Made by a program: the position numbers and the translations under genes. The notes under the pieces are model-generated. The model had not been told where the DNA came from. It searched no databases and worked only from the letters and a program-made list of their open reading frames with translations. A stretch of DNA of 63,378 bases, filler included, from Reclinomonas americana ATCC 50394 (Eukaryota), in the NCBI GenBank assembly GCA_048213135.1. It is 12 parts of 12 records of this genome, joined end to end, with 100 filler letters (N's around TTAATTAATTAA, not from the genome) between each part and the next. Parts side by side here need not be neighbours in the genome. Positions count along the whole stretch, not along the records: positions 27,842 to 55,832 come from AFZH01021523.1; 11 more parts are not named here. One strand, written 5' to 3'. Every line of letters begins with the position of its first letter. Within the stretch, counting starts at the first letter, position 1. Below are positions 30,248-52,415 of this stretch, one piece after another.

Positions 30248-31153
30248 TTATGGTTCCTGCGCGCCGCATGTATTCAGATATATCGCGTACAGCGAAGTCG
30301 ATGCGCAGATGAAAAGCCGGTTCTTTTTGCGGCCTCCGAAAGCGATGTTGGCGACGGTCTCCGGAATGCGGATGCGGCCGAGCAACGTTCCATCGGGCAG
30401 GTAGCAGTTGACGCCGGCGCCTGCGCTTGTCCACACGTTCCCCACCTCGTCGCAGCGCAGGCCGTCGGCATAGCCGCCATTGATATCGGCAAAGATGCGA
30501 GCCCGAGAAAGCGTGCATCCGTCCTCGGATACGTCGATCGCAAAAATCCGCCCCTGTGGTTCAGGGTTGCCCGGAACACCTGTATCGGCGAGGTAGAGGG
30601 TCCGTTCGTCGGGCGAGAAGGCGAGGCCGTTCGGGTGAACGGCTTCGTCGCAAATGACTGTCAGCTCGTGCGTTCTCGGGTCATATCGATAGACGACATA
30701 TCGACAGGTCTCGCTCTCCGCGCGGTCTCCTTCGTAGTCGCTTTGTATGCCGTAAGGCGGGTCCGAGAACCAGATCGTCCCGCCGGACTTCACAACGACG
30801 TCGTTGGGAGAATTGAGTTTCTTGCCGCCGAACCTGTCGACAACGGTGACGACACGGCCGTCCAGTTCCGTGCGGCTGATCCGGCGGCCGCCATGTTCGC
30901 AACTGATCAGCCGCCCCTCGCGGTCACGGGTATGACCGTTTGCATATCCTGCGGGCTGACGAAAAACGGACACTCCATCCTCGGTCCAACGCAAAATGCG
31001 GTCGTTCGGAATGTCGCTGAACAAGAGGTGGCCGGCATCACCGAACCAGACTGGACCCTCTACCCACCGGAACCCTGTGGCCAGCCGTTCAACGGGGGCA
31101 TTTCCCATGACATAGCGTCGGAACCGGGGATCCAAAATCTCGACGTCCACCAT
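30248..31153 (-). CDS. SMP-30/gluconolactonase/LRE family lactonase
   Basis: EGPVW, SPNDVVV..WFSDP, PNGLAFSPDE, ADGLRCD; AGGAG RBS before ATG 31153. Confidence 0.92.
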   Translation of the reverse strand: MVDVEILDPRFRRYVMGNAPVERLATGFRWVEGPVWFGDAGHLLFSDIPNDRILRWTEDGVSVFRQPAGYANGHTRDREGRLISCEHGGRRISRTELDGRVVTVVDRFGGKKLNSPNDVVVKSGGTIWFSDPPYGIQSDYEGDRAESETCRYVVYRYDPRTHELTVICDEAVHPNGLAFSPDERTLYLADTGVPGNPEPQGRIFAIDVSEDGCTLSRARIFADINGGYADGLRCDEVGNVWTSAGAGVNCYLPDGTLLGRIRIPETVANIAFGGRKKNRLFICASTSLYAIYLNTCGAQEP

Positions 31154-31522
31154 GATGGGGCTCCTGCTATGCTGTCTGCGCGTGCGCATGAAAACAGCGG
31201 AAGGCTGCTTTCCATTCTGATCGGGAGCCTCGCCGGCGAATGCGGGTTCGCCTCCAGGCTCGATCTCCTTGTTTCGCTGCCATTCCGGACGGAGAATCGT
31301 TGCGCAGTTCCGCTGGAATTGCTCCAAACCCGTTATCCCGAAAGCAGGCAGGGGAAAGCGCCGGAAAGTGCCTATCTGCGGCCGACCCATGGTCGATCTT
31401 GCCGGCGCAGGGCATCGGAGCAGTCAGCAATCTCGTCGGGCAGGCTGGATCTGGGATAGCCCGGGACTCAATCAGCCGAGTTCGTTTGCAGCCGGTTTCT
31501 GCGGATAAAGCCGCTTGGCGGT

Positions 31523-32185
31523 TCATTGCCCGGCATTGCGATCAACCGCGACGGTGAAGGGGGCCTGCGTCCTGGCCCTGACCTCGTCGAGGCTGACGCC
31601 CGGTGCGAGTTCGATCAGGGTCAGCCCGCCGCCATTGGCCTTGTCGCAGGTCATCACGCAGAGATCGGTGATGATCATGTCGACGACGCCGGCGCCGGTC
31701 AGCGGCAGCGAGCAGCGCTCCAGCACCTTGGATTCGCCCGCCTTGTTGGCGTGGTCCATCACGACGATGACCTTCTTGACGCCGGCTACGAGGTCCATTG
31801 CGCCGCCCATGCCCTTCACCATCTTGCCGGGAATCGTCCAGTTGGCGATGTCGCCATTGGCCGCCACTTCCATGGCGCCGAGGATGGTCAGGTCGATATG
31901 GCCGCCGCGGATCATCGCGAACGAATCGGCCGAGGAGAAGAAGCTCGAGCTCGGCAGCACCGTGATCGTCTGCTTGCCTGCATTGACAAGGTCGGGATCC
32001 TCTTCCCCCTCATAGGGGAAGGGACCCATGCCGAGCATGCCGTTCTCGGACTGGAGCGTCACGTCGACGCCGTCGGGAATGTAGTTCGCCACCAGCGTCG
32101 GAATGCCGATGCCGAGATTGACGTAGAAGCCGTCCTTGAGCTCCTTGGCCGCGCGGGCGGCGACTTGTTCGCGGGTCCAAGGCAT
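31523..32185 (-). CDS. scoB: 3-oxoacid CoA-transferase subunit B
   Basis: [14 protein letters not shown] (catalytic Glu), [10 protein letters not shown]. Confidence 0.93.
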
Positions 32186-32895
32186 TATGCCGACTCCCTT
32201 TTGCGTACCGTCCGCTTCTCGATGCGCTTCTCGTTGATCGTGCTCTTGACGATGCGGTCGACATAGATGCCGGGCGTGTGGATCGCCTCCGGATCGAGCG
32301 ATCCGACCGGCACGATTTCCTCGACCTCGGCCACGGTCACCTTGCCGGCGGTCGCCATGTTCGGGTTGAAGTTGCGCGCGGTACGCCGGTAGACGAGGTT
32401 GCCGGCGGTGTCGGCCTTCCAGGCCTTGACGATGGCGAGATCGGCCCGCAGCCAGGTCTCGCGAACGTAGAGCTGCCCCTCGAACTCCTCGACCGGCTTG
32501 CCCTCGGCGACGACCGTGCCGACGCCGGTCTTGGTGTAGAAGGCCGGGATGCCGGCGCCGCCGGCGCGGATGCGCTCGGCCATTGTACCTTGAGGGTTGA
32601 ACTCCAACCCCAGCTCGCCGGCGAGGTATTGCTGCTCGAACAGCTTGTTCTCGCCGACATAGGACGCGATCATCTTCCGGATCTGGCGGGTCTGCAGCAG
32701 CATCCACAGGCCGAAGCCGTCGGCGCCGGCATTGTTTGAGATCACCGTCAGGTTCTTCACGCCGGAATCGCGAATCTCAGGGATCAGGCTTTCGGGATTG
32801 CCCGACAGGCCGAAGCCGCCCGACATGATCGTCATCCCGTCGAAAAGCAGCCCAGCCAGCGCAGCCTCAGGGTTCTCATAGACTTTCTGCGTCAT
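32185..32895 (-). CDS. scoA: 3-oxoacid CoA-transferase subunit A
   Basis: [38 protein letters not shown]; stop overlaps the scoB start. Confidence 0.93.
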
Positions 32896-33081: not shown

Positions 33082-34809
33082 TTATTTGGCGTGCCGAACC
33101 TCGGGGTCGTCGACGTCTGCAAATGTGGCGAGAAAGCCCAGATCGCAGCCTTCGTCCGCTTGCAGGACGTTTTCGATATGCAGCTTGCCGAACCCTCGTT
33201 CGTAATGCGGCGGCGGCGCGACCCAGGTCGCGCGGCGTGCCGCAAGCTCGGACTCGTCGACAAGGAGGTCGAGAGCCCGTCCCTCCACGTCGAGCAAAAT
33301 CAGGTCACCGTCCTGAACAAAGGCGAGGGGGCCGCCCACGCGGCTTTCGGGGCAGACATGCAGGATGCAGGTTCCGTAACTCGTGCCGCTCATCCGCGCA
33401 TCGGAGATGCGGACCATGTCTTGCACGCCCTGCTGGAGGAGCTTCTTCGGGATCGGGAGCATGCCCCATTCCGGCATGCCGGGCGCACCCACCGGCCCGG
33501 CATCCTGCAGCACGAGCACGCTGTCCGCCGTGACCGGCAGCGCGGGGTCGTCGATGCGTGCGAGCATTTCCTTGAAGTTGCGGAAAACCACGGCCGGGCC
33601 GGTATGCTTCTGCAGGCGCGGATCGGCGGCGGCGCGCTTGAATACGGCCCCTCTGGGCGCAAGCGTGCCGCGCAGGACGACCAGGCCGCCGGTGCCGAAG
33701 ACCGGATTCTCGACGGTCCGAATGACATCGTCATTATAGACGGCGGCGTCGGCGATATTGTCGCCAAGCGTCCTGCCGGTGACGGTCATGCACGACAGGT
33801 CGAGATGGCCTTCCAGCCGTTTCAGCAGGGCGAGCAATCCGCCGGCGTAATAGAAGTCCTCCATCAGATATGCGCCGCTCGGCTGAAGGTTGCAGATCAC
33901 AGGCACGCTTTCGCTCGCGGCGCCGAAATCGTCGAGCGTCAGCTCCAGCCCAAGGCGGCGCGCCATCGCGATCAGATGGATCAGCGAATTGGTCGAGCCC
34001 GAGAGAGCCATGTCGGCGATCACCGCGTTGAGGAAGCTCGCGCGCGTCACCATGCTCCTCGGCCGGAGATCCTCCGAGACCATCTCGACGATGCGGCGCC
34101 CGCACATCGAAGCCATCTGTGCATGTCGGGAGTCGACGGCCGGGATGGAGCTAGCGCCGGGCAGGGTGAAGCCGAGCACGTCGGCAAGGCTCGTCATGGT
34201 CGATGCCGTGCCCATGGTGTTGCAGGTGCCGGGCGAGCGCGACGTACCTTCGCCGAAGGAGCGCCAGGTCTTCTCGTCGATCTTGCCCGAGCGAAAGTCG
34301 TCCAGCGCCTTCCAGGTGCTGGATCCGGTCCCGAGATTCCAGTTCTCGCGGAAATGGCCGCGCAGCATGGCGCCCGCGGGCACGAAGATCGCGGGAATGT
34401 TCATGGAGGCAGCGCCCATGAGCAGGCCCGGGGTCGTCTTGTCGCAGCCTCCGAGCAGCACGGCACCATCGATCGGGTGCGAGCGCAGGATTTCCTCGGC
34501 TTCCATCGCGAGCAGGTTGCGGTAGATCAGGCTGCTCGGCCTGACATAGGTCTCGCCGATGCTGAGAGCCGGCATCACGACCGGAAAGCCGCCCGCTTGC
34601 CAGATGCCGCGCTTGATGTCCTCAAGGCGTTGCGGGAAGTGCGAATGGCAGGAGTTGAGGTCCGACCAAGTGCTCAGAATCCCGATGACGGGCTTGCCCT
34701 GGAAGTCCTCGCTCGTGAAGCCCATCTGCTTGGTGCGATAGGATTTATGGTTGCCGGTTTGCCCCTCGCCGCCAAACCATTTCTGGCTTCTCAATTTCGT
34801 GGGATCCAT
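33082..34809 (-). CDS. IlvD/Edd family dehydratase, sugar-acid (L-arabinonate/D-xylonate) dehydratase-like
   Basis: NSCHSH, GGCDKTTPG, GTCNTMGTASTM (Fe-S ligands), SDARMSGTSYG. Confidence 0.9.
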   Translation of the reverse strand: MDPTKLRSQKWFGGEGQTGNHKSYRTKQMGFTSEDFQGKPVIGILSTWSDLNSCHSHFPQRLEDIKRGIWQAGGFPVVMPALSIGETYVRPSSLIYRNLLAMEAEEILRSHPIDGAVLLGGCDKTTPGLLMGAASMNIPAIFVPAGAMLRGHFRENWNLGTGSSTWKALDDFRSGKIDEKTWRSFGEGTSRSPGTCNTMGTASTMTSLADVLGFTLPGASSIPAVDSRHAQMASMCGRRIVEMVSEDLRPRSMVTRASFLNAVIADMALSGSTNSLIHLIAMARRLGLELTLDDFGAASESVPVICNLQPSGAYLMEDFYYAGGLLALLKRLEGHLDLSCMTVTGRTLGDNIADAAVYNDDVIRTVENPVFGTGGLVVLRGTLAPRGAVFKRAAADPRLQKHTGPAVVFRNFKEMLARIDDPALPVTADSVLVLQDAGPVGAPGMPEWGMLPIPKKLLQQGVQDMVRISDARMSGTSYGTCILHVCPESRVGGPLAFVQDGDLILLDVEGRALDLLVDESELAARRATWVAPPPHYERGFGKLHIENVLQADEGCDLGFLATFADVDDPEVRHAK

Positions 34810-34866: not shown

Positions 34867-34890
34867 TTGACTCGATACATATTGATACAT
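34867..34890. promoter_or_regulatory. Putative -35 box and direct-repeat operator GATACAT-N3-GATACAT
   Basis: TTGACT at 34867, repeats at 34874 and 34884, in the divergent dehydratase/oxidoreductase intergenic region. The same motif recurs at five other promoters. Confidence 0.6.
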
Positions 34891-34962
34891 ACCAGTGTCA
34901 AGTGATCGGGATCGGCGGTGTGCCGTGAGCGTCCCGGCAGGCTAGGGGTCCGGGTGCAAACG

Positions 34963-36366
34963 ATGCAAAAGGCGGAGCTTGCTGGAGCTTTCCAATCGCT
35001 CCAGGACGACCTTGGAAAAGCGGCGGTTCTCGTCGGAGACGACGTGCCGGACCGCAACGGCAACGATCACGGCAAGCTCAGGCCCTGTCCCCCGCAGGCC
35101 GTCATCCGCCCTGTCGATGCCCGGCAGCTTTCGGAAGCGGTATCTTTCTGTCGGCGCTGGGGGTTGAAATTCGTCGCGCAGGGCGGCCTCACGGGGCTCT
35201 GCGGCGGTGCCCGGCCGGAGCCGGGCTGGGTTGCGATATCGCTCGACCGAATGACGGGCGTCGAGGAAGTCGACGTCCAGAACGGCACCATGACGGTCAA
35301 GGCCGGAACGCCGCTCGAAGTGGTGCAGAATGCCGCCGAGGAGGCCGGGCTGCTGTTCCCGCTCGATCTGGGTGCGCGTGGCTCCTGCACGATCGGCGGT
35401 AACATCGCCACGAATGCCGGCGGCAACCGCGTTATCCGTTACGGCATGACGCGCGATCTCGTTCTTGGGCTCGAGGTGGTGCTCGCGGACGGGACGATCG
35501 TGTCCAGCCTGAACAATCTCATCAAGAACAACTCCGGCTATGACCTGAAGCAGCTGTTCATCGGCTCCGAGGGAACACTCGGAATTATCACCCGTGCCGT
35601 CCTGAGGCTTCATCCGCGGCCGCGGCACAAGGATGTCGCCATCTGCGCAGTGGAGAATTATGCGCAGGTGCAGTGGCTCTTGTCCGCCGCGAAGGCGGAG
35701 CTTGGCGCGCAGCTTACAGCCTTCGAGGTGATGTGGCGGGACTACTGGGAGGCCGTCACGCCCTCTTTGGGCGGAAGGCCGCCGATCGAGGGGGCATACG
35801 GGTTCTACGTTCTAATCGAGAATCAGGTCACGCAGCAGGGCGCCGACGGGCGGATGTTTCAGGGATGGCTCGAGGCCGCGCTCGAGACAGGTCATTTCGG
35901 GGACGCGGCGATCTCGCAATCGGAGCAGCACGTCCGGAACTTCTGGGCCGTTAGGGACGCGGTGTCCGAATTCGGCCGCATCCTCGGGGATTACATTTCC
36001 TACGATGTCGGGCTCCCGGTCGAGCACATGGACGCGTTTGCGGCACGGTGCCGGGGCGAACTGGCCGCGGCAATGCCGGATGCGCGGAGCCTGCATTACG
36101 GCCATATCGGCGATGGCAATCTGCACGTTGTCGCCTGGGCGCCAGGGATACGCTCCGAGGCTGCAAAAGACGTCGTCGACCAGGTCATCTACGGAGCGGT
36201 GCGCGAGCTGGGCGGAAGCATATCGGCCGAGCACGGCATAGGCTCCACCCGGAAAAAATGGTTGAGCTACTCGCGAAGCAGCCCGGAAATCGAGCTGATG
36301 AAGCTTCTGAAAAACGCAATGGACCCCGGCGGGTTTCTGAATCCCGGCAAGGTCATACCTGGGTAG
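34963..36366 (+). CDS. FAD-binding 2-hydroxyacid dehydrogenase (GlcD/D-2-hydroxyglutarate dehydrogenase-like)
   Basis: QGGLTGLCGG, GGNIATNAGG, GSEGTLGIIT, GHIGDGNLH, SAEHGIG. Confidence 0.9.
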   Translation: MQKAELAGAFQSLQDDLGKAAVLVGDDVPDRNGNDHGKLRPCPPQAVIRPVDARQLSEAVSFCRRWGLKFVAQGGLTGLCGGARPEPGWVAISLDRMTGVEEVDVQNGTMTVKAGTPLEVVQNAAEEAGLLFPLDLGARGSCTIGGNIATNAGGNRVIRYGMTRDLVLGLEVVLADGTIVSSLNNLIKNNSGYDLKQLFIGSEGTLGIITRAVLRLHPRPRHKDVAICAVENYAQVQWLLSAAKAELGAQLTAFEVMWRDYWEAVTPSLGGRPPIEGAYGFYVLIENQVTQQGADGRMFQGWLEAALETGHFGDAAISQSEQHVRNFWAVRDAVSEFGRILGDYISYDVGLPVEHMDAFAARCRGELAAAMPDARSLHYGHIGDGNLHVVAWAPGIRSEAAKDVVDQVIYGAVRELGGSISAEHGIGSTRKKWLSYSRSSPEIELMKLLKNAMDPGGFLNPGKVIPG

Positions 36367-36530: not shown

Positions 36531-37364
36531 ATGCCATTGCTGGATCGGATCGGTGTTGATATCGGAGGCAAGCTTGCTGTCGAGGACGCTGTCGAGGCGG
36601 CCAGGCAGAAAAGCATCAAGTTCATCGATATTCAGCTCGATATCGGCGAAAACAGAATCGATCTGTTCGACGATCAGCGCATCGGCCGCCTGCGGGACAG
36701 GATTGTCGAAGCGGATCTCGGCGTGGGTCTTCATACCCTGTCGGCCGTCAACGTGGCCGAATTCTCTCCGTTCCTGTCGGAAGCCGTCGATCGATACATG
36801 ATGGCTTATGTCGATATGGCAGCAAAGCTGCACGCGCGCCATGTCGTCGTCCATGCCGGTTTTCATTTTACGGCTGACAGGGCGCGGCGGATGCAGGCCG
36901 GTCGGGATCGCCTCAGCAAAATCACCGAGTATGCCGAGAGGCGGGGCGTGCTGCTGCTCCTGGAGAATATGAACAAGGAGCCGGACGACGCGGAAGTCCA
37001 TTATCTCGCCCATTCCGTTGAAGAGTGGCGGTTCTACTTCGAACAGATCAGGTCAGGCTCGCTCGGCCTGGCGTTCACCGCAAATCACGCGCACATCATG
37101 CCCGATGGCGTGGACGGTTTCATCGACGCCATCCCGATGGATCGCGTGGGCGAGGTGCGGCTCGCGGATTGCTGGCGCAATGGCAAAGAGGAGCACCTCA
37201 TGGTCGGCGAGGGCGATTTCGACTTCGCCGCGATGTTCAATCGGCTCGAGGGTGGCGGCTTCAAGGGGCCATACGTTGCCGCGTTCGTGTCGTTGGAGGC
37301 CATGGTCGCCGCGAGGTCGCAGTTGGTGGCGATGGCCGCCGGGGCAGGCGTCGACGTCTCCTGA
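36531..37364 (+). CDS. Sugar phosphate isomerase/epimerase (xylose-isomerase-like TIM barrel)
   Basis: VVVHAG, LLLENM, ANHAH, EHLMVGEGDFDF metal-site pattern. Confidence 0.8.
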   Translation: MPLLDRIGVDIGGKLAVEDAVEAARQKSIKFIDIQLDIGENRIDLFDDQRIGRLRDRIVEADLGVGLHTLSAVNVAEFSPFLSEAVDRYMMAYVDMAAKLHARHVVVHAGFHFTADRARRMQAGRDRLSKITEYAERRGVLLLLENMNKEPDDAEVHYLAHSVEEWRFYFEQIRSGSLGLAFTANHAHIMPDGVDGFIDAIPMDRVGEVRLADCWRNGKEEHLMVGEGDFDFAAMFNRLEGGGFKGPYVAAFVSLEAMVAARSQLVAMAAGAGVDVS

Positions 37365-37545: not shown

Positions 37546-37575
37546 TTGACTTAAGACATATTAATACAAATAATC
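37546..37575 (+). promoter_or_regulatory. Putative promoter and direct-repeat operator AAGACAT-N3-AATACAA
   Basis: TTGACT at 37546, repeats at 37553 and 37563, AATAAT -10-like element at 37569. Confidence 0.6.
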
Positions 37576-39953: not shown

Positions 39954-39969
39954 AATCCGGACATGAAAC

Positions 39970-44269: not shown

Positions 44270-44284
44270 TTGCAACGTATTACT

Positions 44285-44315
44285 TTGTTATAGATACGTA
44301 ACAATACAAGATAAT
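44285..44315 (+). promoter_or_regulatory. Putative promoter and direct-repeat operator GATACGT-N3-AATACAA
   Basis: Repeats at 44293 and 44303 in the short AT-rich gap before GGT-like gene 1. Confidence 0.55.
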
Positions 44316-44330
44316 CGGGAAGTAGGCTTC

Positions 44331-46022
44331 ATGGCCAATGTTTCTGAGTGGACCCACGCCAAAAGCGAGGCTGTGGCCAGGCGGGGGATGGTCGTTGCGA
44401 GGCATCCATTGTCTGCGCTGGCCGGGCAGGAGATTCTCGCCAAGGGAGGGAATGCGGTCGATGCCGCGGTGGCCGCCTCGCTCGTCGGCAGCGTGGTTCA
44501 GCCGGTCGCGAACGCGATTGGCGGCGGCGGGCTCATGCTGATCGCCCGGAAGGGCGATGTTTCCGCCATCAACTACCTCTATCAGGCGCCGGCCGGCGCT
44601 TCGCCCGGCATGTTCGAACTAGAAGCCGGGGCAGCCCCCGGCTTGTTCGGGTGGAGCGGCATCAAGGGAAGGGCCAACGAGATCGGCGGGTCCGCGGTGG
44701 GCGTTCCCGGCTCCATAGCCGGCCTGCATCATGCGGTGTCGCGGTACGGCCGGCTGTCCTGGGCTGAGGTTGTCGCGCCCGCCATCGCGGCTGCGGAGCA
44801 GGGCTTTCAGATCGATTGGTACAACTCCTTGATGGCGTCGGTGCTGGCCGACGAAATGCTCGCTTTCCCCGCTACGGCGCGCGCCTTCCTGCGAAACGGC
44901 CGCGATGCCTATCGTCCCGCGGTCATCGGCCCTGCCGATGTGCATCGCCAGCCCGAGTTAGCCGGGGTGCTCAGGAAGATCGCCACGGACGGCCCCTCGG
45001 CATTTTACCAGGGCGACGTTGCAAGGAATATCGCCGCTTCCGTCAAGGCTGCGGGTGGCACGCTGAGCGAGAGGGATCTCGCTGAATACAAGGTGCGCAC
45101 ACCTGCGGCTGCCCGATTGGAATACCGCGGCGCGTCCATCAGCTACCTGCCGTATGGCGCCCCGACATTCGCGCTCGCATTGGGGATATTGGCCGCCTTC
45201 GATATGCCGCGCTTCGCGTCGGACGATCCGCAGCGGCTTCATCTGGTGATCGAGGCATTGAAGCTGGCTTGGGCATATCGGGATAGGTTCAACGGCGACA
45301 GCGATGTTGTTCCGGGTCCGTGGCGCGGCCTCGCTGATGTTGGGTTTGCCGCCGAGCTCGCCCGCTCGATCGATCCCCGGCGCGCCAAGGCGCCCGATAC
45401 CAGTCTCGACCCTTACGACTTCGACGATGCCGCCAGGGGCGTTGAGGGGGCGGGCCGCGCGCGCTCTGAAGGTACCGTCCACATATCGGCAGCCGACGAC
45501 AGCGGTGGGATGGTCGCGTTGACCGAAACCGTGGTTGGAAATTTTGGCTCCCTCGTAACCTCCGACGACGGCGTGCTCCTCAACAACGGAATGATCGCGT
45601 TCAGCCCGATACCGGGCCAGACAAACTCGATCGCGCCGGGTAAGCGGCCCGCGACGAACATGTGCCCGATCATCGTCCATGATGCCTCCGGGCGGGCCGT
45701 GGCGACGCTTGGCGCCTCCGGCGGCCGGAAGATCATCCCCGCTGTCTTGCAGGCTTTGCTGCATCATCTCGACCACGGACTATCGATGCAGGATTCAATC
45801 GCGCATCCTCGTCTCGACCTTGAGGGCGACGCGGTTGTTCTCGATGCTCGATATGGCGCTTCGGTGGCCGAGGCCCTGGAGCGGCTTGGGCACCGGGTCG
45901 AGCGGCGCAGCGAAGATCTCACGACATTCGAGTTCGGCAACGCCTGCGGCATCGCGCGCCGGGATGATGAGCTGCGCTCGGGCGTGAACCCCTTCCAGAT
46001 GACCATGGCGGCTGGACTTTGA
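44331..46022 (+). CDS. Gamma-glutamyltransferase-family Ntn hydrolase 1 (no signal peptide)
   Basis: GGNAVDAAVA, VGVPG, autoprocessing site EG|TVHIS, GVLLNNGM, PGKRP, GASGG. Confidence 0.9.
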   Translation: MANVSEWTHAKSEAVARRGMVVARHPLSALAGQEILAKGGNAVDAAVAASLVGSVVQPVANAIGGGGLMLIARKGDVSAINYLYQAPAGASPGMFELEAGAAPGLFGWSGIKGRANEIGGSAVGVPGSIAGLHHAVSRYGRLSWAEVVAPAIAAAEQGFQIDWYNSLMASVLADEMLAFPATARAFLRNGRDAYRPAVIGPADVHRQPELAGVLRKIATDGPSAFYQGDVARNIAASVKAAGGTLSERDLAEYKVRTPAAARLEYRGASISYLPYGAPTFALALGILAAFDMPRFASDDPQRLHLVIEALKLAWAYRDRFNGDSDVVPGPWRGLADVGFAAELARSIDPRRAKAPDTSLDPYDFDDAARGVEGAGRARSEGTVHISAADDSGGMVALTETVVGNFGSLVTSDDGVLLNNGMIAFSPIPGQTNSIAPGKRPATNMCPIIVHDASGRAVATLGASGGRKIIPAVLQALLHHLDHGLSMQDSIAHPRLDLEGDAVVLDARYGASVAEALERLGHRVERRSEDLTTFEFGNACGIARRDDELRSGVNPFQMTMAAGL

Positions 46023-46056
46023 CGCTATTCGCTCAGGCGAAGACGGAGTAGGAATA

Positions 46057-46521
46057 ATGGATCTCAAGTTCAGCCATGTCGACATTGTCGTCGAGGACCT
46101 CGACAAGGCGGTCGAATATTACAAGCGTGTCTTCAAATGTGTCGCTTCCGAGAAGATCGAGTGGAACCGAGGCGGTTTCCATGTCGACTTCGTGATCATG
46201 TTCAGCGGCACGGAGCGCTTCTTTCTGGTCAAGCCGTACAAGGGCAACTTGAGGGATTTGCTCGATACCAAGGGCGAGGGAACGATCTATCGCCTCTGCT
46301 ATACGGTTCCGGACATGGCCAATGCTTACGACGAGCTTCTCGCCGCCGGAGTTCAGCCCGAGGACGAGAACGGCGCGCCGCTTGCCAAGGACAACCTCGC
46401 ATCGCCAGGAGGAACTCCGATCGTATGGCTTCCAAAGGCGTTCGGCGGGTTGTCCATCGAACTCCTCGAACGCGGCCCTCATGAGGCCAAGATGGAATCG
46501 CGGCGCAAGTCTGCCACCTAA
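46057..46521 (+). CDS. VOC/glyoxalase family protein (methylmalonyl-CoA epimerase-like fold)
   Basis: FSHVDIVVEDLDKAVEYY, KGEG, GLSIELLE. Confidence 0.8.
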   Translation: MDLKFSHVDIVVEDLDKAVEYYKRVFKCVASEKIEWNRGGFHVDFVIMFSGTERFFLVKPYKGNLRDLLDTKGEGTIYRLCYTVPDMANAYDELLAAGVQPEDENGAPLAKDNLASPGGTPIVWLPKAFGGLSIELLERGPHEAKMESRRKSAT

Positions 46522-46715
46522 GTATGAAGTTATCGCGGCAGGCCATAATTAAGGTTTTGAGCCTGCTTCGCCACATTATGCGGATGCCGGAAGACAGCAC
46601 GCGGCGCAGGGCGATCTATATCCACCAAAGATATTGGTGAATGAACGAAACTCTGATCTCTCGGATCCCGCTCGGTCAACAAAAAAATACTTCGCTATTA
46701 CATTTGGAGATTCAG

Positions 46716-48386
46716 ATGCCTCTAGACACGACCGTGTCGAATTGGACGCACGATAAGACTGAGGCTCGAGCCTCTGGCGGAATGGTTTCGTCGCGGCACC
46801 CGGAATCGGCCAAGGCCGGGCGCGCGATCTTGCAGCAGGGCGGAAATGCGGTCGATGCCGCCGTCGCCGCGTCCTTTGCGGAAAGCGTCGTCCAGCCTGC
46901 GGCGAGCACAATTGGCGGTGGCGGCATTTTTACCTTCCGGGGTGTAGATGGCGACGCCCACGGCATCAACTACATGTGGCAGACTCCGCTGTCGGCGAAG
47001 CCGGACATGTTCCCCATCGAGGGGAAACCTGAGCGCGGGCTCTTCGGCTGGTCGGGTGTTAAGAATGCTGCCAACGAGATTGGGGCTCTGGCTGTGGCCG
47101 TCCCTGGATCCGTCGCAGGTCTCGTCGAGGCTTCCAAGCGCTTCGGCAGACTGCCGCTGAAGAAGGTTTTGGAGCCTGCTATCGCCCTGGCGGCAGACGG
47201 ATATGAGATGGATTGGTACGGCAGCCTTATGGCCGGCATCCATCTTGATATCATCAAGGAATACCCTGTCACCGCGCGGATGCTCCTCCGGGACGGGCAG
47301 TATCCCTATCGCCCGAACATGATCGGCCGTGCGGATCGCCACAAGCAGCCCGCTCTGGCTGAAACGCTTAGTGCCATCGCGGATCGCGGCGCCGAGGCTT
47401 TCTATACCGGGAAGGTGGCGGAGAGCATCGTTGCGGCGGTTCAGGAGAAGGGCGGTATTGTCTCCCTCGAAGACCTCGCGACTTACAAGCCGTTCGTCTC
47501 GAAGCAGCGTTCCGTGACCTATCGCGGACATAAGATCTCGGGCGAGTACAGCGGCTTCGTGATCTATGGCCAAGTTTTCAACACGCTGTCGCATTTCGAG
47601 GTCGGCGCCCACGCCCCCGACTCGCCCGAGCGCCTTCGCATCCTGATCGATGTCCTGCGGCGCTGCTGGGCGGACAAGGGCAAGGTCTATCAGGATTTCG
47701 ACACCGACAAGGGACCCTGGGATGTTCTGCTGTCGTCGGCCTATGCCTGCCAGACGGCGCAGGAGCTGGCTGACAGCCGGCCGAAATCGACGTTCAAGGT
47801 GAGCTCAGCCGGTGAAAGCCGCACCGTTCACATTTCGGCCATTGACGCCGAAGGCGGAATGGCGAGCCTGACTGAGACGGTGATCGGCAACTATGGCAGC
47901 TTCATCTGCTCCGAAACCGGCGTGCTGCTGAACAACGGCATGATCAGCTTTGCCCCGATTCCGGGCGAGGTGACCTCGATCCGCCCCGGTCGGCGCTCCG
48001 CTTCGTCCTTCATCAGCCCGCTTCACATCACCCGCCCCGACGGGAAGTCGATCGTGACGATCGGTTCCTCCGGCGGATCGAAGATCGTCACCTCCAAGCT
48101 GCAGATCGCAAGCTTGATCATGGATCACGGCATGTCCCCGCAGCAGGCCGTATCCTTCCCAAGGTTCGATTTCGAGGGCGACAAGCTGATCCTCGATCCG
48201 CGCTTCCCACAAGCCACGATCGACCGTCTCAAGAGCCTCGCCTACGACATCGATCTGCGCTTGGAAGAGCTCTCGACCTTCGAATACGGCAACCCCGCCG
48301 TTCTCGCCCGCGATGCCGACGGCGTGATCACGGGCGGCGTCAACCCGTTCCAGGCGACGACTGCCGTCGGTTTCAACGCCGCGTAA
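46716..48386 (+). CDS. Gamma-glutamyltransferase-family Ntn hydrolase 2 (no signal peptide)
   Basis: GGNAVDAAVA, VAVPG, SR|TVHIS, GVLLNNGM, GSSGG; paralog of 44331-46022. Confidence 0.9.
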   Translation: MPLDTTVSNWTHDKTEARASGGMVSSRHPESAKAGRAILQQGGNAVDAAVAASFAESVVQPAASTIGGGGIFTFRGVDGDAHGINYMWQTPLSAKPDMFPIEGKPERGLFGWSGVKNAANEIGALAVAVPGSVAGLVEASKRFGRLPLKKVLEPAIALAADGYEMDWYGSLMAGIHLDIIKEYPVTARMLLRDGQYPYRPNMIGRADRHKQPALAETLSAIADRGAEAFYTGKVAESIVAAVQEKGGIVSLEDLATYKPFVSKQRSVTYRGHKISGEYSGFVIYGQVFNTLSHFEVGAHAPDSPERLRILIDVLRRCWADKGKVYQDFDTDKGPWDVLLSSAYACQTAQELADSRPKSTFKVSSAGESRTVHISAIDAEGGMASLTETVIGNYGSFICSETGVLLNNGMISFAPIPGEVTSIRPGRRSASSFISPLHITRPDGKSIVTIGSSGGSKIVTSKLQIASLIMDHGMSPQQAVSFPRFDFEGDKLILDPRFPQATIDRLKSLAYDIDLRLEELSTFEYGNPAVLARDADGVITGGVNPFQATTAVGFNAA

Positions 48387-48403
48387 GAAACAGGTTCAAA
48401 GTC

Positions 48404-49699
48404 ATGGACAATTTCACTCCGAGAAGCGAGGCGCAGAAGGCAAAGGTCCGCAAGGCCTATGACCTGATCCCGGGCGCCTCAACCAATTCCCTGCTCCAGC
48501 CCGACGGAATCGAGTTTCTGATCGAGCGCGGCGAGGGGGCTCACGTCTTCGACACGGACGGGCGGCGCTATCTGGACTTCATGTTGGGAGCGGGTCCGCT
48601 CGTGCTGGGGCATTCGCATCCGCGCATCGTCGAGACGATCAAGCGCCAGGCCGAGCGCGGGACCCAGTTTTTCGGGCTGGCGGATCGCGCAGTCGATCTC
48701 GCCGAACGGCTGGTTCAGCACATCCCCTCCGCAGAGATGGTCCGATATGCATCGAGCGGATCAGAGGCGACGTTCCATGCCCTCAGACTGGCGCGCGCGA
48801 CGACCGGACGACAGAAATTCATCAAGTTCGATGGTGCCTGGCATGGCCATCATGACTTGGCGGTCTGGTCGATGGAGATGTCGCCGACACAGGTGCCGGA
48901 GCCCTATGCCGTCAGCTCGGGTATCCAGACCGGCGTTAAGGACAGCCTGATGGTGCTGCCCTTCAACGATGCCGCTTACTTCAAGAAGATCATGGCGGAG
49001 CATCCGGGCGAGTTCGCGGCCGTCATCTGCGAACCGATGCAGCGCACTTTGAAGCCGCTGCCCGGCTTTCTCGAGACCCTAAGGCAGGAATGCGATCGCT
49101 GGGGCACGGTCTTGATCTTCGACGAGATCGTTTCGGGGTTCCGTCTTTCCGCGGGTGGCGCACAGGCCAAGTATGGCGTCACGCCCGATCTGACCACGCT
49201 GGGCAAGGCGCTGGGAGGAGGGCTGCCCCTCTCCGCCGTCGTCGGCCGGCGGGCGTTTATGGAGCATCTCGACCCGCGCAGTGACAGCCACAACTACAGC
49301 TTCCATTGCGGCACCTTCAACGGCCATCCGATCGGCATCGAATGTGCGCATACCACCATCGACATTCTCGTCGATGAGAAGGGCTTGGACTACATCGCGG
49401 ATCTCGGGGAATACGGCCGGCAGGCTCTAGCCAAGCTTTTCCGCGATCTTGGCGCCAAGGTGCAGATCACCGGCGACGGGCCCATCTTCCACTTCTACTT
49501 CTCGGAAGAACCGATCCACGACCATGCCGCGGTGCGCCGGTCAAACGTCCCGCTCTCCGACGCCATGCACAAAGAGATTTATGCGAAGGGCATCTACAAA
49601 AACTTTTCAAAGGCCTATGTCAGCACCGCACACACTAGGGACCATATCGACGAGCTCTGCGACGCGCTCCGGCGCGCCTACGTGGCGGTAAAGTCATGA
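48404..49699 (+). CDS. Class III PLP aminotransferase (glutamate-1-semialdehyde aminomutase-like)
   Basis: SSGSEAT, FDEIVSGFR, TLGKALGGGLP, HCGTFNGHP. Confidence 0.9.
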   Translation: MDNFTPRSEAQKAKVRKAYDLIPGASTNSLLQPDGIEFLIERGEGAHVFDTDGRRYLDFMLGAGPLVLGHSHPRIVETIKRQAERGTQFFGLADRAVDLAERLVQHIPSAEMVRYASSGSEATFHALRLARATTGRQKFIKFDGAWHGHHDLAVWSMEMSPTQVPEPYAVSSGIQTGVKDSLMVLPFNDAAYFKKIMAEHPGEFAAVICEPMQRTLKPLPGFLETLRQECDRWGTVLIFDEIVSGFRLSAGGAQAKYGVTPDLTTLGKALGGGLPLSAVVGRRAFMEHLDPRSDSHNYSFHCGTFNGHPIGIECAHTTIDILVDEKGLDYIADLGEYGRQALAKLFRDLGAKVQITGDGPIFHFYFSEEPIHDHAAVRRSNVPLSDAMHKEIYAKGIYKNFSKAYVSTAHTRDHIDELCDALRRAYVAVKS

Positions 49700-50886
49700 G
49701 CAGTCCCGCAGTGGTTTCGATCGCGCGGCGCTCCAGTCCCGACTTACTCTGGCCGCTGCCTCCGACGCGCGTCCTCAACATGTCGACGGGGCCGATCGAG
49801 GTCACGCGAAATGTTCTGGAAGCGCAGAACGCAAGCATCCTGACGCCTCATATCGAGTCGTTCTGGAGCGCTCATGACGAAACGATCGATCTGCTTGCGA
49901 AGGTGCTTCGCACCAGGAGCAAGATCTTCCTGATGCACGGCTCGATCCGATCGGGTATCGACGTTGCCCTCGCCAACTTCATTGAGCCGGGTACAAAGGT
50001 GCTCAGCATTATCAACGGCTATTGGGGTGAGTTGATCGCTCAATGGGCCGAGCGCCGGGGCGCTCTGGTGACGCGGCTCGTGCATGGTGTCCTCGACCCC
50101 ATCGACCTTCAAAGGGTCGAGGAGGCGCTTCGTTCAGGCCCCTATGACCTGACGACGCTCGTCCATGTCGAAACCAATTCCGGGCTCGTAAATCCGGTCC
50201 GGGAGATCGGGGAGCTTGTCGCGCGCGCCGGCGGCCTGTTCTTCGTCGATACCGCCTGTTCGGCCGGGGCTATCGAACTGGAAACCGACGACTGGAAAAT
50301 CGACATCCAGACAACCGGCTCTCACAAGTGCCTTGCCTCTGTTCCGGGCTTGGCCGTCGTCTCGGTTTCCGACAAAGCCTGGCGGCAGCGTTCGGCCATT
50401 GCGGGAAAGCAGGGATATTTCGATTTCTCGGAACTATGGAAGCACTCCATCGAGAGAGTCCACACCCCGCCATTCACTCAGCCCACCACTCTCGTTCTGG
50501 CCTTGCGCGCGGCACTTCGCGAGATATTCCAATTTGGAATGGAAAAGTGGTGGGCGGTTCACCGTCAGCTGGCGACACGCTTCATGGATGACCTTCGGGC
50601 CGGCGGCTTTTCGATGCTCATCGATGAAAGCACGGTGGCCGGTCGCCGCGATTGCTACTCCGACACTGTGATTGCGGTGCGTTATCCGCCTAGTGTCAGC
50701 GATCAGTCGTTCCGGAAAATTCTTCTCGAAGAGTTCGGGATCTTCGTTATCGGCAATGTCGGTGAGTTCGCGGGACGTTCCTTCCGCGTCGGGCTGATGG
50801 GGCCGGCGCAGATGGACGCCATCAACATGACCGGGACGGTCGCAGCGCTTCAGCGCACCGCAGCAGCTGCCGCAGCTCGCCAATAA
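49696..50886 (+). CDS. Class V PLP aminotransferase (alanine-glyoxylate/serine-pyruvate/PucG-like)
   Basis: VHVETNSG, VDTACS, TGSHKCL (PLP Lys), FRVGLMG; ATGA overlap with the upstream gene. Confidence 0.88.
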   Translation: MSSPAVVSIARRSSPDLLWPLPPTRVLNMSTGPIEVTRNVLEAQNASILTPHIESFWSAHDETIDLLAKVLRTRSKIFLMHGSIRSGIDVALANFIEPGTKVLSIINGYWGELIAQWAERRGALVTRLVHGVLDPIDLQRVEEALRSGPYDLTTLVHVETNSGLVNPVREIGELVARAGGLFFVDTACSAGAIELETDDWKIDIQTTGSHKCLASVPGLAVVSVSDKAWRQRSAIAGKQGYFDFSELWKHSIERVHTPPFTQPTTLVLALRAALREIFQFGMEKWWAVHRQLATRFMDDLRAGGFSMLIDESTVAGRRDCYSDTVIAVRYPPSVSDQSFRKILLEEFGIFVIGNVGEFAGRSFRVGLMGPAQMDAINMTGTVAALQRTAAAAAARQ

Positions 50887-50912
50887 TAATGCGGTAGGCC
50901 GGCTGTGCCGGC

Positions 50913-52415
50913 CTACACGATCACCGGGAAGCGTGAGGACGAGCGCTTGGAAAGATCGGCCGCCGCGCGGCAGACTTGGCGGACTGCTTTACCCAGCGCG
51001 TCTCTGTCGGAAAGGCCGTAGCTCAGCCGGAAGCCTGTGTTGTCGGCCTTTTCCGGCGTGAGATGAACGCCTGTCAGAATGCCGACATTCCGGCGCAGGC
51101 AGGCGTAGAAGAAGTCGACAGGATCTATGGCGGCCGGAAGCTTGACCCACAGGTTCAGCCCGCCATGCGGCCGCGTGAAGGTCGAGCCGGCCGGCAGATT
51201 TTCAGCAAGTCCCTGAATGACCGTATCCAGCACCGGCTTGTAAGCTTTCCTGATGCGGGACAGATTCGCTTCGGCTTCAGCTGAATCGAGATAGGCCGCA
51301 AAAGCATCCTGCAGAAGAGGCGCGGTGTGAAGGTCTGAAACAGATTTCCAGGCCGTGACCTGCTCCATACGTGCAGGAGGCGCCAATACAAAACCCAACC
51401 TCATCCCGGGGATAAGCGTTTTCCCCATGCTGACGATGTAATAGACAAGGTCTTCAGGCTCCGACAGCGACTTGATCGACGGTATGAAATCACCTTCGAA
51501 CCGGAGTTCAGAAAAGCAGTCGTCCTCGATAATAGGAATGCCGTGGCGCCGGCCGATGCCTAGGATCGCCCGTCTCTTTTCCAACGAGGTCGTGATACCC
51601 GTCGGGTTCTGATAAGTCGGCATCGTGAAGATCGCTTTGGCATTGGACGATCTCACGACTTCGGACAATTGCTCGATCGCCATGCCGTCCTGTTGCATGT
51701 CGATGCCGATCGCGTTCGCCCCCATATTGCGGAGCAGATCGAGTAAGCCGAAATAGGTGGGATTCTCGACGATGACGGTATCCCCGCGGCTGACCAGGGA
51801 CTGGATCGTGATGGAAATTCCCTGCTGGCCGCCGCTGGTGACGATCATGTCGTCGACGTCGCAGTGTAGTTGGCGATGTCTTTCGAGGAAGCGCGCGAAG
51901 GCCGCCTTCAGGTTTGGGAGCCCGTCGGGAGCGATGTACGAATAGGCGTATTCCGGCTTGGCCTTCAAGATCTGGCCGATTTTCTGTTCGAACGCGCCGG
52001 TATCGATCAGGCTCGCGTCAGGATAGGCCCGGGTCAGAGGAACGATATCGGGCAGGTCACCTACCTTGAGCATCCGCCGAAACGTGTCTCCGTCCTCGTT
52101 CGGCAATGTGTCTCGAGGTGAAGGGGCAGCGGGGGCGGGAGCTGGGGGCTCTTCAGCGGGGCCTTGCACAAAAGTCCCCAGTGCACCCCGTCCAGCAATC
52201 AGGCCACGGTCTGACAATTCCCGATAGGCGCGCGCAATCGTCATGACATTGACATTCGCGGCCTCGGCCAGGGCGCGGACCGGCGGCAACCGCTCTCCCT
52301 CACTGAGGCGGCCTTCGATAATCTCTGTCGCAATGAAATCCCGGACTTGAGCATAGAGAGCGACATCCGCAGCCTTGTCTAACTGGAGAATGCCCGCAAG
52401 CCTTTGAATTTCCAT
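50913..52415 (-). CDS. MocR/GabR-family PLP-dependent transcriptional regulator
   Basis: GntR wHTH (GERLPPVRALA..MTIARAY) fused to a class I aminotransferase-like domain (PTYQNPTG, IIEDD, SMGKTLIPGMRLG). Confidence 0.93.
   Translation of the reverse strand: MEIQRLAGILQLDKAADVALYAQVRDFIATEIIEGRLSEGERLPPVRALAEAANVNVMTIARAYRELSDRGLIAGRGALGTFVQGPAEEPPAPAPAAPSPRDTLPNEDGDTFRRMLKVGDLPDIVPLTRAYPDASLIDTGAFEQKIGQILKAKPEYAYSYIAPDGLPNLKAAFARFLERHRQLHCDVDDMIVTSGGQQGISITIQSLVSRGDTVIVENPTYFGLLDLLRNMGANAIGIDMQQDGMAIEQLSEVVRSSNAKAIFTMPTYQNPTGITTSLEKRRAILGIGRRHGIPIIEDDCFSELRFEGDFIPSIKSLSEPEDLVYYIVSMGKTLIPGMRLGFVLAPPARMEQVTAWKSVSDLHTAPLLQDAFAAYLDSAEAEANLSRIRKAYKPVLDTVIQGLAENLPAGSTFTRPHGGLNLWVKLPAAIDPVDFFYACLRRNVGILTGVHLTPEKADNTGFRLSYGLSDRDALGKAVRQVCRAAADLSKRSSSRFPVIV

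Follow-up and report, generated by a model that had tools for sequence, protein, structure and literature searches.

We examined a cluster of genes at positions 30248-52415 of a 63,378-nucleotide stretch of DNA (hereafter the window) from the Reclinomonas americana ATCC 50394 assembly GCA_048213135.1. Sequence comparison indicates that the cluster is probably one horizontally mobile catabolic unit for an amide-linked amino compound, in which the amide would be channelled through 2-oxoadipate and D-2-hydroxyglutarate (D-2-HG). Its core consists of a MocR regulator, one or more periplasmic binding proteins (SBPs), a fused ABC permease, an ABC ATPase, two signal-less hydrolases of the gamma-glutamyltransferase (GGT) family (GGT1 and GGT2), a small VOC protein, and aminotransferases of class III (AT3) and class V (AT5). 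It was noted that the cluster lies entirely within a single assembled piece (27842-55832; 27,991 nt; AFZH01021523.1) with artificial joiners on both sides, so the claim of a first-pass annotation that everything sits in one contig stands although the window is made of 12 joined pieces. That annotation had listed 17 genes as a candidate catabolic system; all are present, and Pfam returned the family it had named in 17 of 17 cases, at or near the positions it gave. Its extent was right as far as mocR, and it overlooked a LysR-family regulator, HglS and a fragment of the electron transfer flavoprotein (ETF) beta subunit beyond that gene.

In the mechanism that we propose, MocR would bind ATACA-type boxes in the spacers of five plus-strand promoters and over its own promoter, most likely keeping them repressed as long as no amine or amino-acid ligand has reacted with its pyridoxal phosphate (PLP). 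One to three paralogous SBPs, of the branch that binds gamma-aminobutyrate (GABA) and mannityl opines, would hand the compound or compounds to the fused-permease ABC importer. GGT1 and GGT2 would then cut the amide in the cytoplasm, its acyl part being something other than gamma-glutamyl (for example a neutral acyl group, or a dicarboxylyl group in des-amino, 2-oxo or 2-hydroxy form), and the class III and class V aminotransferases would deaminate the cleavage products. Carbon would pass from 2-oxoadipate to D-2-HG through HglS and on to 2-oxoglutarate through an enzyme like D-2-hydroxyglutarate dehydrogenase (D2HGDH) together with ETF, with a further possible entry through a CoA-transferase or CoA-ligase and beta-oxidation-type enzymes. 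The small VOC protein would provide an integral step, be it isomerization, epimerization or a glyoxalase-like reaction. The order of these steps is likewise a proposal.

Co-inheritance of the core genes

The 17 window proteins were compared by tblastn with 105 loci, including 3 plasmid regions and 74 metagenome loci. Eight distinct loci with at least 17 kb of DNA were counted: the window, plasmids of Variovorax paradoxus VAI-C (L029), Agrobacterium vitis T60/94 (L030) and Variovorax sp. SRS16 (L105), and the loci L032, L033 (L034 has the same arrangement), L035 and L039. The counts exclude the short contigs L036, L038 and L095, and also L031, which is the window's own sequence. We found that MocR (32-51% identity to that of the window), GGT2 (53-66%), AT3 (61-75%) and AT5 (47-64%) occur in all eight loci. 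The small VOC gene and the same type of ABC importer were each found in six, L039 having an MFS gene and L105 a LIV-type transporter; a CoA-transferase or CoA-ligase was likewise present in six. A GGT1 orthologue and a GlcD-family flavoenzyme were each encountered in five loci of the eight. The genes for an araD-like dehydratase, a TIM-barrel protein and an SMP-30/gluconolactonase-family (SGL) lactonase were each recorded in one locus only, the lactonase also on the short contig L036.

Gene order and strand vary between the loci, whose carriers span the Alpha- and Betaproteobacteria and include plasmids, and in L029 and L035 insertion sequence or transposase genes lie beside or within the locus. 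AT3, AT5 and the small VOC protein gave no match in any locus whose GGT is at most 42% identical (L011 has a 22% match of the MocR family). Because the core recurs despite rearrangement, and because AT3, AT5 and VOC are lacking around the distant GGTs, we read the core as a co-inherited and mobile unit to which the sugar-acid genes do not belong. By the terms of the first-pass annotation, its case would fall if the genes neither occurred together elsewhere nor were co-induced; the core does occur together in seven other distinct loci.

The rarity of the hydrolases was also assessed. Among the best 120 protein clusters matching GGT1 (5.8 billion sequences), 46 were at least 45% identical, after which identity dropped to 42%, and 3 of the 980 plasmid records with a GGT1 match reached at least 49%. 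When GGT1 peptides were searched against one genome per species, only relatives of at most 35% identity came back (L001-L028), with no aminotransferases or VOC protein. No GGT2 match at E<=1e-130 was found among 401 sampled alphaproteobacterial genomes, for each of which the three best candidates were scored. The next GGT clade (about 40% identity; L077, L088 and L104) is accompanied by a HelY-type helicase and unrelated genes that give no hint of a substrate. As a Ti-plasmid test, the A. vitis record was searched for VirE2, with no match there and none in the control genomes either.

Altered hydrolase pockets and operator-like sites

GGT1 (44331-46022, plus strand) and GGT2 (46716-48386, plus strand) are paralogues with 45% identity, GGT2 being the GGT present in every cluster variant. 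Both match PF01019 over its full length (Pfam E=4e-119 and 1e-103, respectively), and both score below the cut-off of the NCBIfam gamma-glutamyltransferase model TIGR00066 (337.6 and 305.5 against 357.85). In GGT1, predicted to be a cytoplasmic N-terminal nucleophile (Ntn) hydrolase, the nucleophile Thr382 and the oxyanion pair Gly464-Gly465 are kept; these residues and Thr400 are invariant in 25 family members and align to Thr399, Gly481-Gly482 and Thr417 of B. licheniformis GGT (BlGGT), for which chain numbering equals enzyme numbering. The alignment to the mature BlGGT starts at GGT1 residue 13, and from the corrected starts (44331 and 46716) and the alignment there is no room for a signal peptide in either protein, no signal-peptide predictor having been run. 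This agrees with the earlier assignment of both GGTs to the cytoplasm.

Passages of a published account (PMC6769717) place Arg109, Thr399, Thr417, Glu419, Glu438, Ser460, Ser461, Gly481 and Gly482 in the BlGGT pocket, and in E. coli GGT describe Arg114, Ser462 and Ser463 as binding the carboxylate and Asn411, Gln430 and Asp433 as binding the alpha-amino group. At the positions of Arg109, Glu419, Glu438, Asp441, Ser460 and Ser461 in the BlGGT alignment, GGT1 carries Leu81, Val402, Gly420, Ala423, Thr442 and Asn443, the first four being Met, Ile, Gly and Ser in GGT2. The glutamate anchors of a canonical GGT are lost in both enzymes, whereas the catalytic residues are retained, and the suspicion that these are non-canonical family members was borne out in this respect. 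A non-gamma-glutamyl amide is proposed because the alpha-amino and alpha-carboxylate anchors of both GGTs are gone and the catalytic machinery is kept.

Related changes are on record in engineered enzymes. Sections of a review (PMC8062742) report that E423Y/E442Q/D445N in B. subtilis GGT raised the glutaryl-7-aminocephalosporanic acid (glutaryl-7-ACA) acylase activity 963-fold, and that D433N conferred glutaryl-7-ACA activity on E. coli GGT. The mapping of E423, E442 and D445 to Glu419, Glu438 and Asp441 was made here; in those sections only D445 is equated with E. coli Asp433. The cluster GGTs resemble canonical GGTs and class IV cephalosporin (glutaryl-7-ACA) acylases in the PF01019 fold, the nucleophilic Thr, the Thr417 equivalent and the Gly-Gly oxyanion hole, and they resemble the acylase-shifted mutants described in those sections in that their acidic alpha-amino anchors are replaced too. 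Unlike canonical GGTs, they have no signal peptide, fall below the NCBIfam cut-off, differ at six pocket positions in GGT1, and form a conserved paralogous pair in a catabolic operon. We interpret both as Ntn amidohydrolases whose acyl substrate group carries no free alpha-ammonium, and this group possibly lacks an alpha-carboxylate as well, because the Arg109 equivalent is lost too.

The first-pass annotation had named HpxW, the oxamate amidohydrolase of Klebsiella purine catabolism. This cytoplasmic member of the GGT family acts on an amide other than glutathione, and its pathway includes a class V aminotransferase. The cluster would share these three features with HpxW. It differs from the HpxW system in that it has no other hpx genes, and no chain named as oxamate amidohydrolase was found among the PDB matches of GGT2 at E<=1e-20 or of GGT1 at E<=1e-30. 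Separately, it was noted that L033 and L105, which have no GGT1 orthologue, carry a hydrolase of about 550 residues of the Amidohydro_3 family beside MocR or AT3, which may be a non-homologous replacement of the second amidase.

The regulator gene mocR (50913-52415, minus strand) encodes a GntR winged helix (residues 20-83) and an aminotransferase-fold domain (Aminotran_1_2, residues 159-470), the Pfam architecture of the MocR/GabR subfamily. Its lysine lies in a class I-like SMGKTL context, SMGKTLIPGMRLG, as judged by eye, which we take to be the PLP-lysine context. The best NCBIfam model was PdxR, with a score of 295.8, below the cut-off of 320.

In intergenic regions of the cluster, a -35 box TTGAC stands ahead of a pair of ATACA-type boxes. 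We searched for the pattern A[TG]AC[AG] followed by A[TG]ACA on the same strand, 10-11 nt apart from start to start, which gave six sites in the window, five of them in the cluster piece. All five are on the plus strand, intergenic and directly upstream of a plus-strand gene; simulating the piece 300 times with a first-order Markov model gave 0.24 sites on average and never more than 2, so that none of the 300 reached five. An earlier operator guess, TGATACATA, was no more frequent than chance, and the two-box pattern took its place. Three more ATACA-type box clusters lie at 19767-22181, in a lower-GC, eukaryote-like piece of the window; these are most likely a composition effect unrelated to the operator.

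The first predicted site, O1 (34867-34890, plus strand; pattern at 34875), combines TTGACT with two ATACAT boxes 10 nt apart and precedes the D2HGDH-like gene in the divergent region between araD and glcD. O2, with boxes at 37554-37568, precedes SBP1 and lies in the spacer of a promoter TTGACT-17-AATAAT (37546-37574, plus strand). O3 (38788-38803, plus strand) is an operator-like direct repeat before SBP2. O4, before SBP3, has its boxes at 40099-40114 in the spacer of the promoter TTGACG-18-TAGCAT (40091-40120, plus strand), and by eye its layout is repeated upstream of SBP genes in L030, L032 and L035. O5 (44294-44308, plus strand) is a further operator-like direct repeat, in the 61-nt gap before GGT1. 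In addition, an inverted box pair (O6, 52447-52461) lies over the mocR promoter TTTACG-16-TATGAT (52447-52480, minus strand).

Three of the sites coincide with sigma-70-like promoters from an independent scan (the SBP1 and SBP3 spacers and the mocR overlap). Since this generic scan returned 6 sites overall against 4.4 +/- 2.0 in shuffles, only the coincidence counts. When the single-box pattern was run unchanged on the orthologous loci, box clusters were found in the promoters of conserved genes in L030 (3 of 5), L032 (1 of 1), L033 (3 of 3) and L039 (2 of 2), all of which have a MocR 42-51% identical to that of the window. The inverted pair at O6, the promoter coincidence and the box clusters of the orthologous loci support the operator independently of the choice of pattern. 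The shared operator of the first-pass annotation was in this way substantiated by five predicted two-box sites, the inverted pair at mocR and the same box in orthologous promoters. Boxes placed between the -35 and -10 elements suggest repression by MocR.

Direct and inverted repeat boxes have been described in the MocR subfamily, according to passages of a survey (PMC5320631). The cluster resembles known MocR/GabR operons (GabR-gabTD, TauR-tpa, EnuR/EhuR of ectoine metabolism, the rhizopine MocR) in having a regulator with a GntR helix-turn-helix and an aminotransferase fold with a class I-like PLP-lysine context, in the position of this gene beside aminotransferase and transporter genes that it presumably controls, and in its predicted direct and inverted repeat boxes. 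It is unlike them in content, the two GGTs, VOC and class III and V aminotransferases lying outside what passages of the survey's main text describe (PMC5320631).

Importer, catabolic enzymes and surrounding DNA

The cluster encodes three SBPs with signal peptides, all on the plus strand: SBP1 (37630-38694; 354 aa), SBP2 (38895-39953; 352 aa) and SBP3 (40193-41251; 352 aa), the starts of SBP1 and SBP3 being corrected ones. SBP2 and SBP3 share 82% amino acid identity, and SBP1 is 62-66% identical to both (62% to SBP2). All belong to Pfam SBP_bac_8. The label PotD-like given to them in the first-pass annotation proved imprecise, as they score about 30 bits with PotD (26.7-31.8 against a cut-off of 582) and 20.1-22.5 with PotF (cut-off 636). 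Their nearest solved match is 4i1d (E=5e-38), an ABC binding protein listed with no ligand name. Others are AttC (5l9s, labelled mannopine; E=2e-32), MotA (1.5e-18) and the agropine binder AgtB (3.5e-16); 4eq7 (labelled polyamine), which we take to be the GABA-specific Atu4243, and fluorescent GABA-sensor scaffolds are also among the solved relatives. Downstream follow a fused two-domain permease with PotB-like and PotC-like halves (41319-43124, plus strand) and an ATPase with a TOBE domain (43130-44269, plus strand), both assigned by Pfam and NCBIfam. The importer resembles the mannityl-opine and GABA uptake systems of Agrobacterium (MotA, AttC, AgtB, Atu4243) in its nearest named solved SBP relatives and its PotBC/PotA-type transporter; unlike those systems, the cluster has wholly different catabolic enzymes, and the ligand of 4i1d is not named. 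The three tandem SBP genes are 73-79% identical in DNA across 37726-41128, and the contig L031, identical to the window, begins at about 39680, the end of SBP2, which suggests that the SBP repeats break assemblies.

The small VOC gene (46057-46521, plus strand) encodes a glyoxalase/methylmalonyl-CoA-epimerase-like protein that is 60-73% identical in the GGT1-orthologue loci L029, L030, L032 and L035, and 60% in L033. Among solved chains, glyoxalase I and methylmalonyl-CoA epimerase fit it about equally well (E about 1e-4), and its ESM Atlas neighbours are only generic VOC and methylmalonyl-CoA-epimerase proteins. AT3 (48404-49699, plus strand) falls in the group of glutamate-1-semialdehyde (GSA) aminomutase, D-phenylglycine aminotransferase and beta-transaminases; it scores best with the families of GSA aminomutase (333.4 bits, cut-off 398) and of GntE, an aldehyde/amine transaminase, and its lysine motif, LGKALGGGLP, is GSA-aminomutase-like. 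AT5 (49696-50886, plus strand) is like AGXT, PucG and pyridoxamine-pyruvate aminotransferase. By eye, AT3 and AT5 each have a lysine in the expected PLP-lysine context. The aminotransferases probably yield oxo-acids or ketones, because no aldehyde dehydrogenase match was found among the genes scanned in the window piece and related loci, which is unusual for omega-amine catabolism.

Upstream of the importer, a FAD-linked D-2-hydroxyacid dehydrogenase (the GlcD-like gene; 34918-36366, plus strand, alternative ATG at 34963) was assigned by Pfam, with FAD_binding_4 and FAD-oxidase_C domains. Among solved chains it comes nearest to 3pm9 (325 bits) and to human D2HGDH (6lpn; 285 bits), against 171-187 bits for LctD, glycolate oxidase and LDHD. 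We classify it by sequence as D2HGDH-like because it is closer to human D2HGDH than to the lactate and glycolate enzymes. The earlier description as an FAD 2-hydroxyacid dehydrogenase was right in family and imprecise in that the bit scores point to D2HGDH.

Past mocR, a LysR-family (GcvA-like) regulator gene (52595-53608, minus strand) is divergent from hglS (53793-55190, plus strand), whose product is the 2-oxoadipate dioxygenase/decarboxylase that converts 2-oxoadipate to D-2-HG. The identification is at the equivalog level (NCBIfam 729.6, cut-off 550; Pfam HGLS E=7e-164, with full-length PF07063 over residues 17-409 and profile positions 1-386 of 386). An ETF beta subunit gene follows and is cut by the end of the piece (55168-55832, plus strand). 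HglS of the window is within two genes of the core. Equivalog-level HglS genes stand equally close to it in V. paradoxus, with a score of 681.8, and in A. vitis, whose two copies score 561.7 and 750.6. The A. vitis genes are followed by a class I aminotransferase and the D-2-HG dehydrogenase YdiJ (1467.7, cut-off 1350). The V. paradoxus run comprises HglS, an FAD oxidoreductase, an aminotransferase-fold protein, an SBP (61% identical to SBP3), ETF beta and ETF alpha; because an SBP3-like binding protein stands inside this HglS-ETF run, the HglS module is there tied to the importer. L039 has a short, Pfam-only HGLS match beside a GlcD-type enzyme, a class I aminotransferase and an alanine dehydrogenase, and a class I aminotransferase accompanies HglS in L029, L030 and L039 alike. 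As an aside, L029 encodes at 24402-25607, between the FAD dehydrogenase and the SBP gene, a stand-alone protein of 401 residues with no DNA-binding domain, whose best NCBIfam matches are MocR-type effector domains (PdxR model positions 94-447).

Parts of a study of Pseudomonas putida (bioRxiv 10.1101/450254) establish the route from 2-aminoadipate through 2-oxoadipate and D-2-HG to 2-oxoglutarate via HglS and YdiJ. The cluster resembles that D-lysine/2-aminoadipate pathway (PP_4108 aminotransferase, HglS PP_5260, YdiJ PP_4493), as set out in those parts, in the HglS equivalogs of the window, V. paradoxus and A. vitis, the YdiJ equivalog of A. vitis, and the D2HGDH-type flavoenzyme with ETF in the window and V. 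paradoxus. It is unlike the pathway of those parts in having no upstream lysine enzymes (such as AmaA/B and DpkA) and in that its module is joined to an importer, two amidases and two other aminotransferases.

The genes at the left of the core were examined separately. The SGL lactonase (30248-31390, minus strand; Pfam E=1.1e-46) is a neighbour outside the conserved core, with one further homologue (47% identity) on the 2.7-kb contig L036, beside a GGT2-like gene. The genes scoB (31523-32185) and scoA (32185-32895), both on the minus strand, encode a family I 3-oxoacid CoA-transferase above the NCBIfam cut-offs (ScoA 263.1 against 128.5; ScoB 330.1 against 243.55) and are specific to the window. 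Elsewhere, other CoA-activating enzymes stand near the core, namely family III CoA-transferases in L029, L030 and L032 and AMP-ligases in L033 and L039; those of L029 and L030 are most like succinate-glutarate CoA-transferase, under the cut-off. The araD-like gene (33082-34809, minus strand), divergent from the GlcD-like gene, encodes an IlvD/Edd dehydratase like L-arabinonate dehydratase, which barely reaches that equivalog (882.8, cut-off 882). It has 87% amino acid identity to a Bosea plasmid araD in a different neighbourhood, where an SMP-30-family lactonase and a Gfo/Idh/MocA oxidoreductase adjoin and an eda aldolase lies farther along the record, and it was missing from all seven other core loci by tblastn. 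Only the dehydratase and lactonase of an L-arabinonate pathway were found on the piece, with no downstream 2-keto-3-deoxy-pentonate dehydratase or aldolase and no sugar dehydrogenase. The xylose-isomerase-like TIM-barrel gene (36531-37364, plus strand; Pfam AP_endonuc_2 E=3.6e-26, weak PDB match only) forms one transcription unit with the FAD dehydrogenase gene and had no tblastn homologue in the other loci.

We regard the lactonase, araD-like and TIM-barrel genes as additions peculiar to this strain that lie outside the conserved system. The first-pass caveat that the lactonase and scoAB were included by adjacency only was correct. The sugar-acid, epimerase and lactone half of that annotation is unsupported because the lactonase, scoAB, araD-like and TIM-barrel genes are window-specific, the L036 lactonase homologue aside.

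With regard to the source, a 9.3-kb region (43130-52415) has near-identical copies in 20 of 24 listed public runs from 13 studies, including metagenomes from lakes, freshwater, seawater, silage and biofilms as well as several runs labelled with an organism; six of the runs may stem from the source itself. The listed contig pieces from four runs differ from window 43130-52415 by 0 or 1 letter. Flanking genes have 84-94% DNA identity to Bosea plasmids. By these comparisons the carrier looks like a widespread, nearly clonal, Bosea-like strain, and it may be a common water or culture companion. Contigs from an RNA library (X7) also span the cluster, with 0 or 1 differing letter in the listed pieces, and DNA carry-over is possible there.

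Runs of 44 N occur 22 times in the window, as 11 pairs that each enclose TTAATTAATTAA, so that each joiner reads N44-TTAATTAATTAA-N44. The joiners lie at 3530-3629, 8388-8487, 17389-17488, 19289-19388, 22702-22801, 24091-24190, 27742-27841, 55833-55932, 57309-57408, 59482-59581 and 61975-62074, and gene adjacency across them is not real. Pieces 1-5 (1-22701) are eukaryote-like (51-59% GC), with (AC)n, (CTTC)n and (GT)n microsatellites, a protein-kinase domain at 14549-15382 (minus strand), WD40/NHL fragments, a Ras GTPase in two reading frames (16569-17360 and 17050-17433) and hardly any bacterial-type open reading frame matches. These are separate pieces with no bearing on the cluster, and they point to a mixed bin or to a eukaryotic assembly that includes a bacterial companion. 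At the left end of the cluster piece, an open reading frame of 512 aa at 28020-29558 (plus strand; GC at third codon positions 0.80) has a Walker-A-like GAGKT motif and no Pfam match, and may be part of a mobile element.

Competing pathways and biological meaning

Several observations weigh against a single catabolic unit of the kind proposed. The two-box pattern was defined after the sites had been viewed, so the significance of the simulation is overstated. L035 has no two-box cluster, and the Variovorax loci L029 and L105 have no boxes; their MocR differs (32-34% identity), and by eye ATGCAA-like boxes are found there instead. Repression rather than activation is read from box position alone. 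Loss of Arg109 also speaks against a distal carboxylate, which weakens the dicarboxylyl-amide version, and autoprocessing of GGT1 and GGT2 is an assumption. HglS adjoins the core in only three of the eight loci, with the weak L039 match in addition; because the window HglS has its own LysR regulator and no two-box site, it could be a second, merely adjacent pathway. Coverage by the RNA library is not a sign of transcription, given the possible DNA carry-over, and every chemical step is argued from family membership and neighbourhood.

One more specific form of the proposed unit would have transamination precede amide cleavage, with delta-(2-aminoadipyl)- or gamma-glutamyl-type amides as substrates (for example isopeptides, or the aminoadipyl side chains of cephalosporin C, penicillin N or aminoadipyl-cysteinyl-valine, ACV). 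An aminotransferase would create the 2-oxo end, the GGT-like enzyme would free 2-oxoadipate or 2-oxoglutarate and an amine, HglS and D2HGDH would finish the carbon, and the second aminotransferase would take the amine. This would account for the lost alpha-amino anchors, for two aminotransferases with one universal amidase and for HglS and D2HGDH beside the core, and it fits the stereo-inverting D-phenylglycine aminotransferase in the AT3 group and the class I aminotransferases beside HglS noted above. We nevertheless hold it to be unlikely in this specific form: the alpha-carboxylate anchor Arg109 is lost too, SBPs of this class are not known to import such a substrate, and HglS is lacking in four of the eight loci within the available DNA. 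Somewhat less probable again is a route for an alpha-aminoketone such as a 5-aminolevulinate-like amine, imported or set free by the system, which AT3 would convert to a 2-oxoaldehyde (4,5-dioxovalerate from 5-aminolevulinate), VOC to D-2-HG and the D2HGDH-like enzyme to 2-oxoglutarate. Glyoxalase converts 4,5-dioxovalerate to D-2-hydroxyglutarate, a reaction for which our literature search found no paper. The best AT3 families (GSA aminomutase and GntE), the AT3 lysine motif, the comparable glyoxalase I match of VOC, the presence of the D2HGDH-like enzyme, the lack of an aldehyde dehydrogenase in the loci examined and the kinship of the SBPs with GABA binders are all consistent with it. The VOC assignment is weak, however, with E about 1e-4 and generic ESM Atlas neighbours; no glyoxalase II or thiol-cofactor gene is evident, and two amidases and HglS would be left unexplained.

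The original proposal of an opine, Amadori or sugar-acid-amine conjugate, imported, cleaved at its amide, transaminated and then dehydrated and oxidized as a sugar acid, draws on the SBP matches to the mannopine, mannopinic-acid and agropine binders AttC, MotA and AgtB, on the A. vitis plasmid as one carrier, and on the IlvD/Edd dehydratase, lactonase and TIM-barrel genes adjoining the window core, with O1 in the araD/glcD divergent region. The closest named binders also include GABA-specific proteins, though, and the araD-like and TIM-barrel genes are confined to one locus in eight and the SGL lactonase to the window and one short contig, the araD-like protein being 87% identical to a Bosea plasmid protein from an unrelated neighbourhood. 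Pfam assignments for the window piece, L029, L030, L032, L033, L035 and L039 contain no amadoriase, opine oxidoreductase or oxoprolinase-like lactam hydrolase. An opine- or Amadori-like substrate was consequently not supported in the loci examined, and we regard this proposal as highly doubtful. Catabolism of polyamines or gamma-glutamyl-polyamines in the manner of Pot and Puu, with a GGT in place of PuuD, would suit the PotB/PotC/PotA-type permease and ATPase, the SBP_bac_8 family and the hydrolases and aminotransferases present; it is very improbable given SBP scores far below the PotD and PotF cut-offs, the loss of the gamma-glutamyl anchors in both GGTs and the lack of a PuuA-like ligase or aminoaldehyde dehydrogenase in the loci examined. 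There is about as little to expect from the view that unrelated operons lie side by side with no single pathway and an operator likeness by chance. The post hoc pattern and the variation of accessory genes by locus would favour it, but the same 4-9 genes recur in seven other distinct loci despite rearrangement and in different hosts, no homologue of AT3, AT5 or the small VOC protein accompanies any of the more distant GGTs, and box clusters recur in orthologous promoters. This view is already disfavoured.

From this comparison, a mobile catabolic unit for an amide-linked amino compound is retained as the probable reading. Of the overall interpretation in the first-pass annotation, one MocR-linked, co-inherited catabolic system with non-canonical GGTs held up, and the sugar-acid, epimerase and lactone half did not. 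Its statement that no described pathway was recognised also agrees with full-text literature searches, which found no description of the gene set. In the passages of the MocR survey main text (PMC5320631), supplementary tables not covered, the gene set is absent, 'ggt' occurs 0 times, and 'glutamyl' occurs once, in a passage on the Puu pathway.

The cluster is an orphan catabolic system that is built from known enzyme families and works like other MocR-controlled operons, with no new principle. The composition absent from the literature searched joins a conserved pair of glutamate-blind cytoplasmic GGTs with a VOC protein and with two aminotransferases, in connection with HglS and D2HGDH. As a tentative and more far-reaching possibility, the paired signal-less GGTs may be the first members of a new functional class, Ntn amidohydrolases that act in the cytoplasm on non-gamma-glutamyl amides. 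They would then define a new nutrient pathway (for an isopeptide, an aminoadipyl or an acyl-amine conjugate, possibly a fragment of a secondary metabolite or polymer), wired directly to the recently discovered HglS/D-2-HG route and spread by plasmids among soil, water and plant-associated Proteobacteria. The two cultured plasmid carriers, V. paradoxus VAI-C and A. vitis T60/94, make the question directly testable, and a MocR with a readable operator could serve as a biosensor once its inducer is found. The cluster places HglS and D2HGDH outside classical lysine catabolism. GGT-family proteins are almost always annotated as glutathione hydrolases, and the co-inherited pair that has lost its anchors offers an entry to a new amidase specificity.

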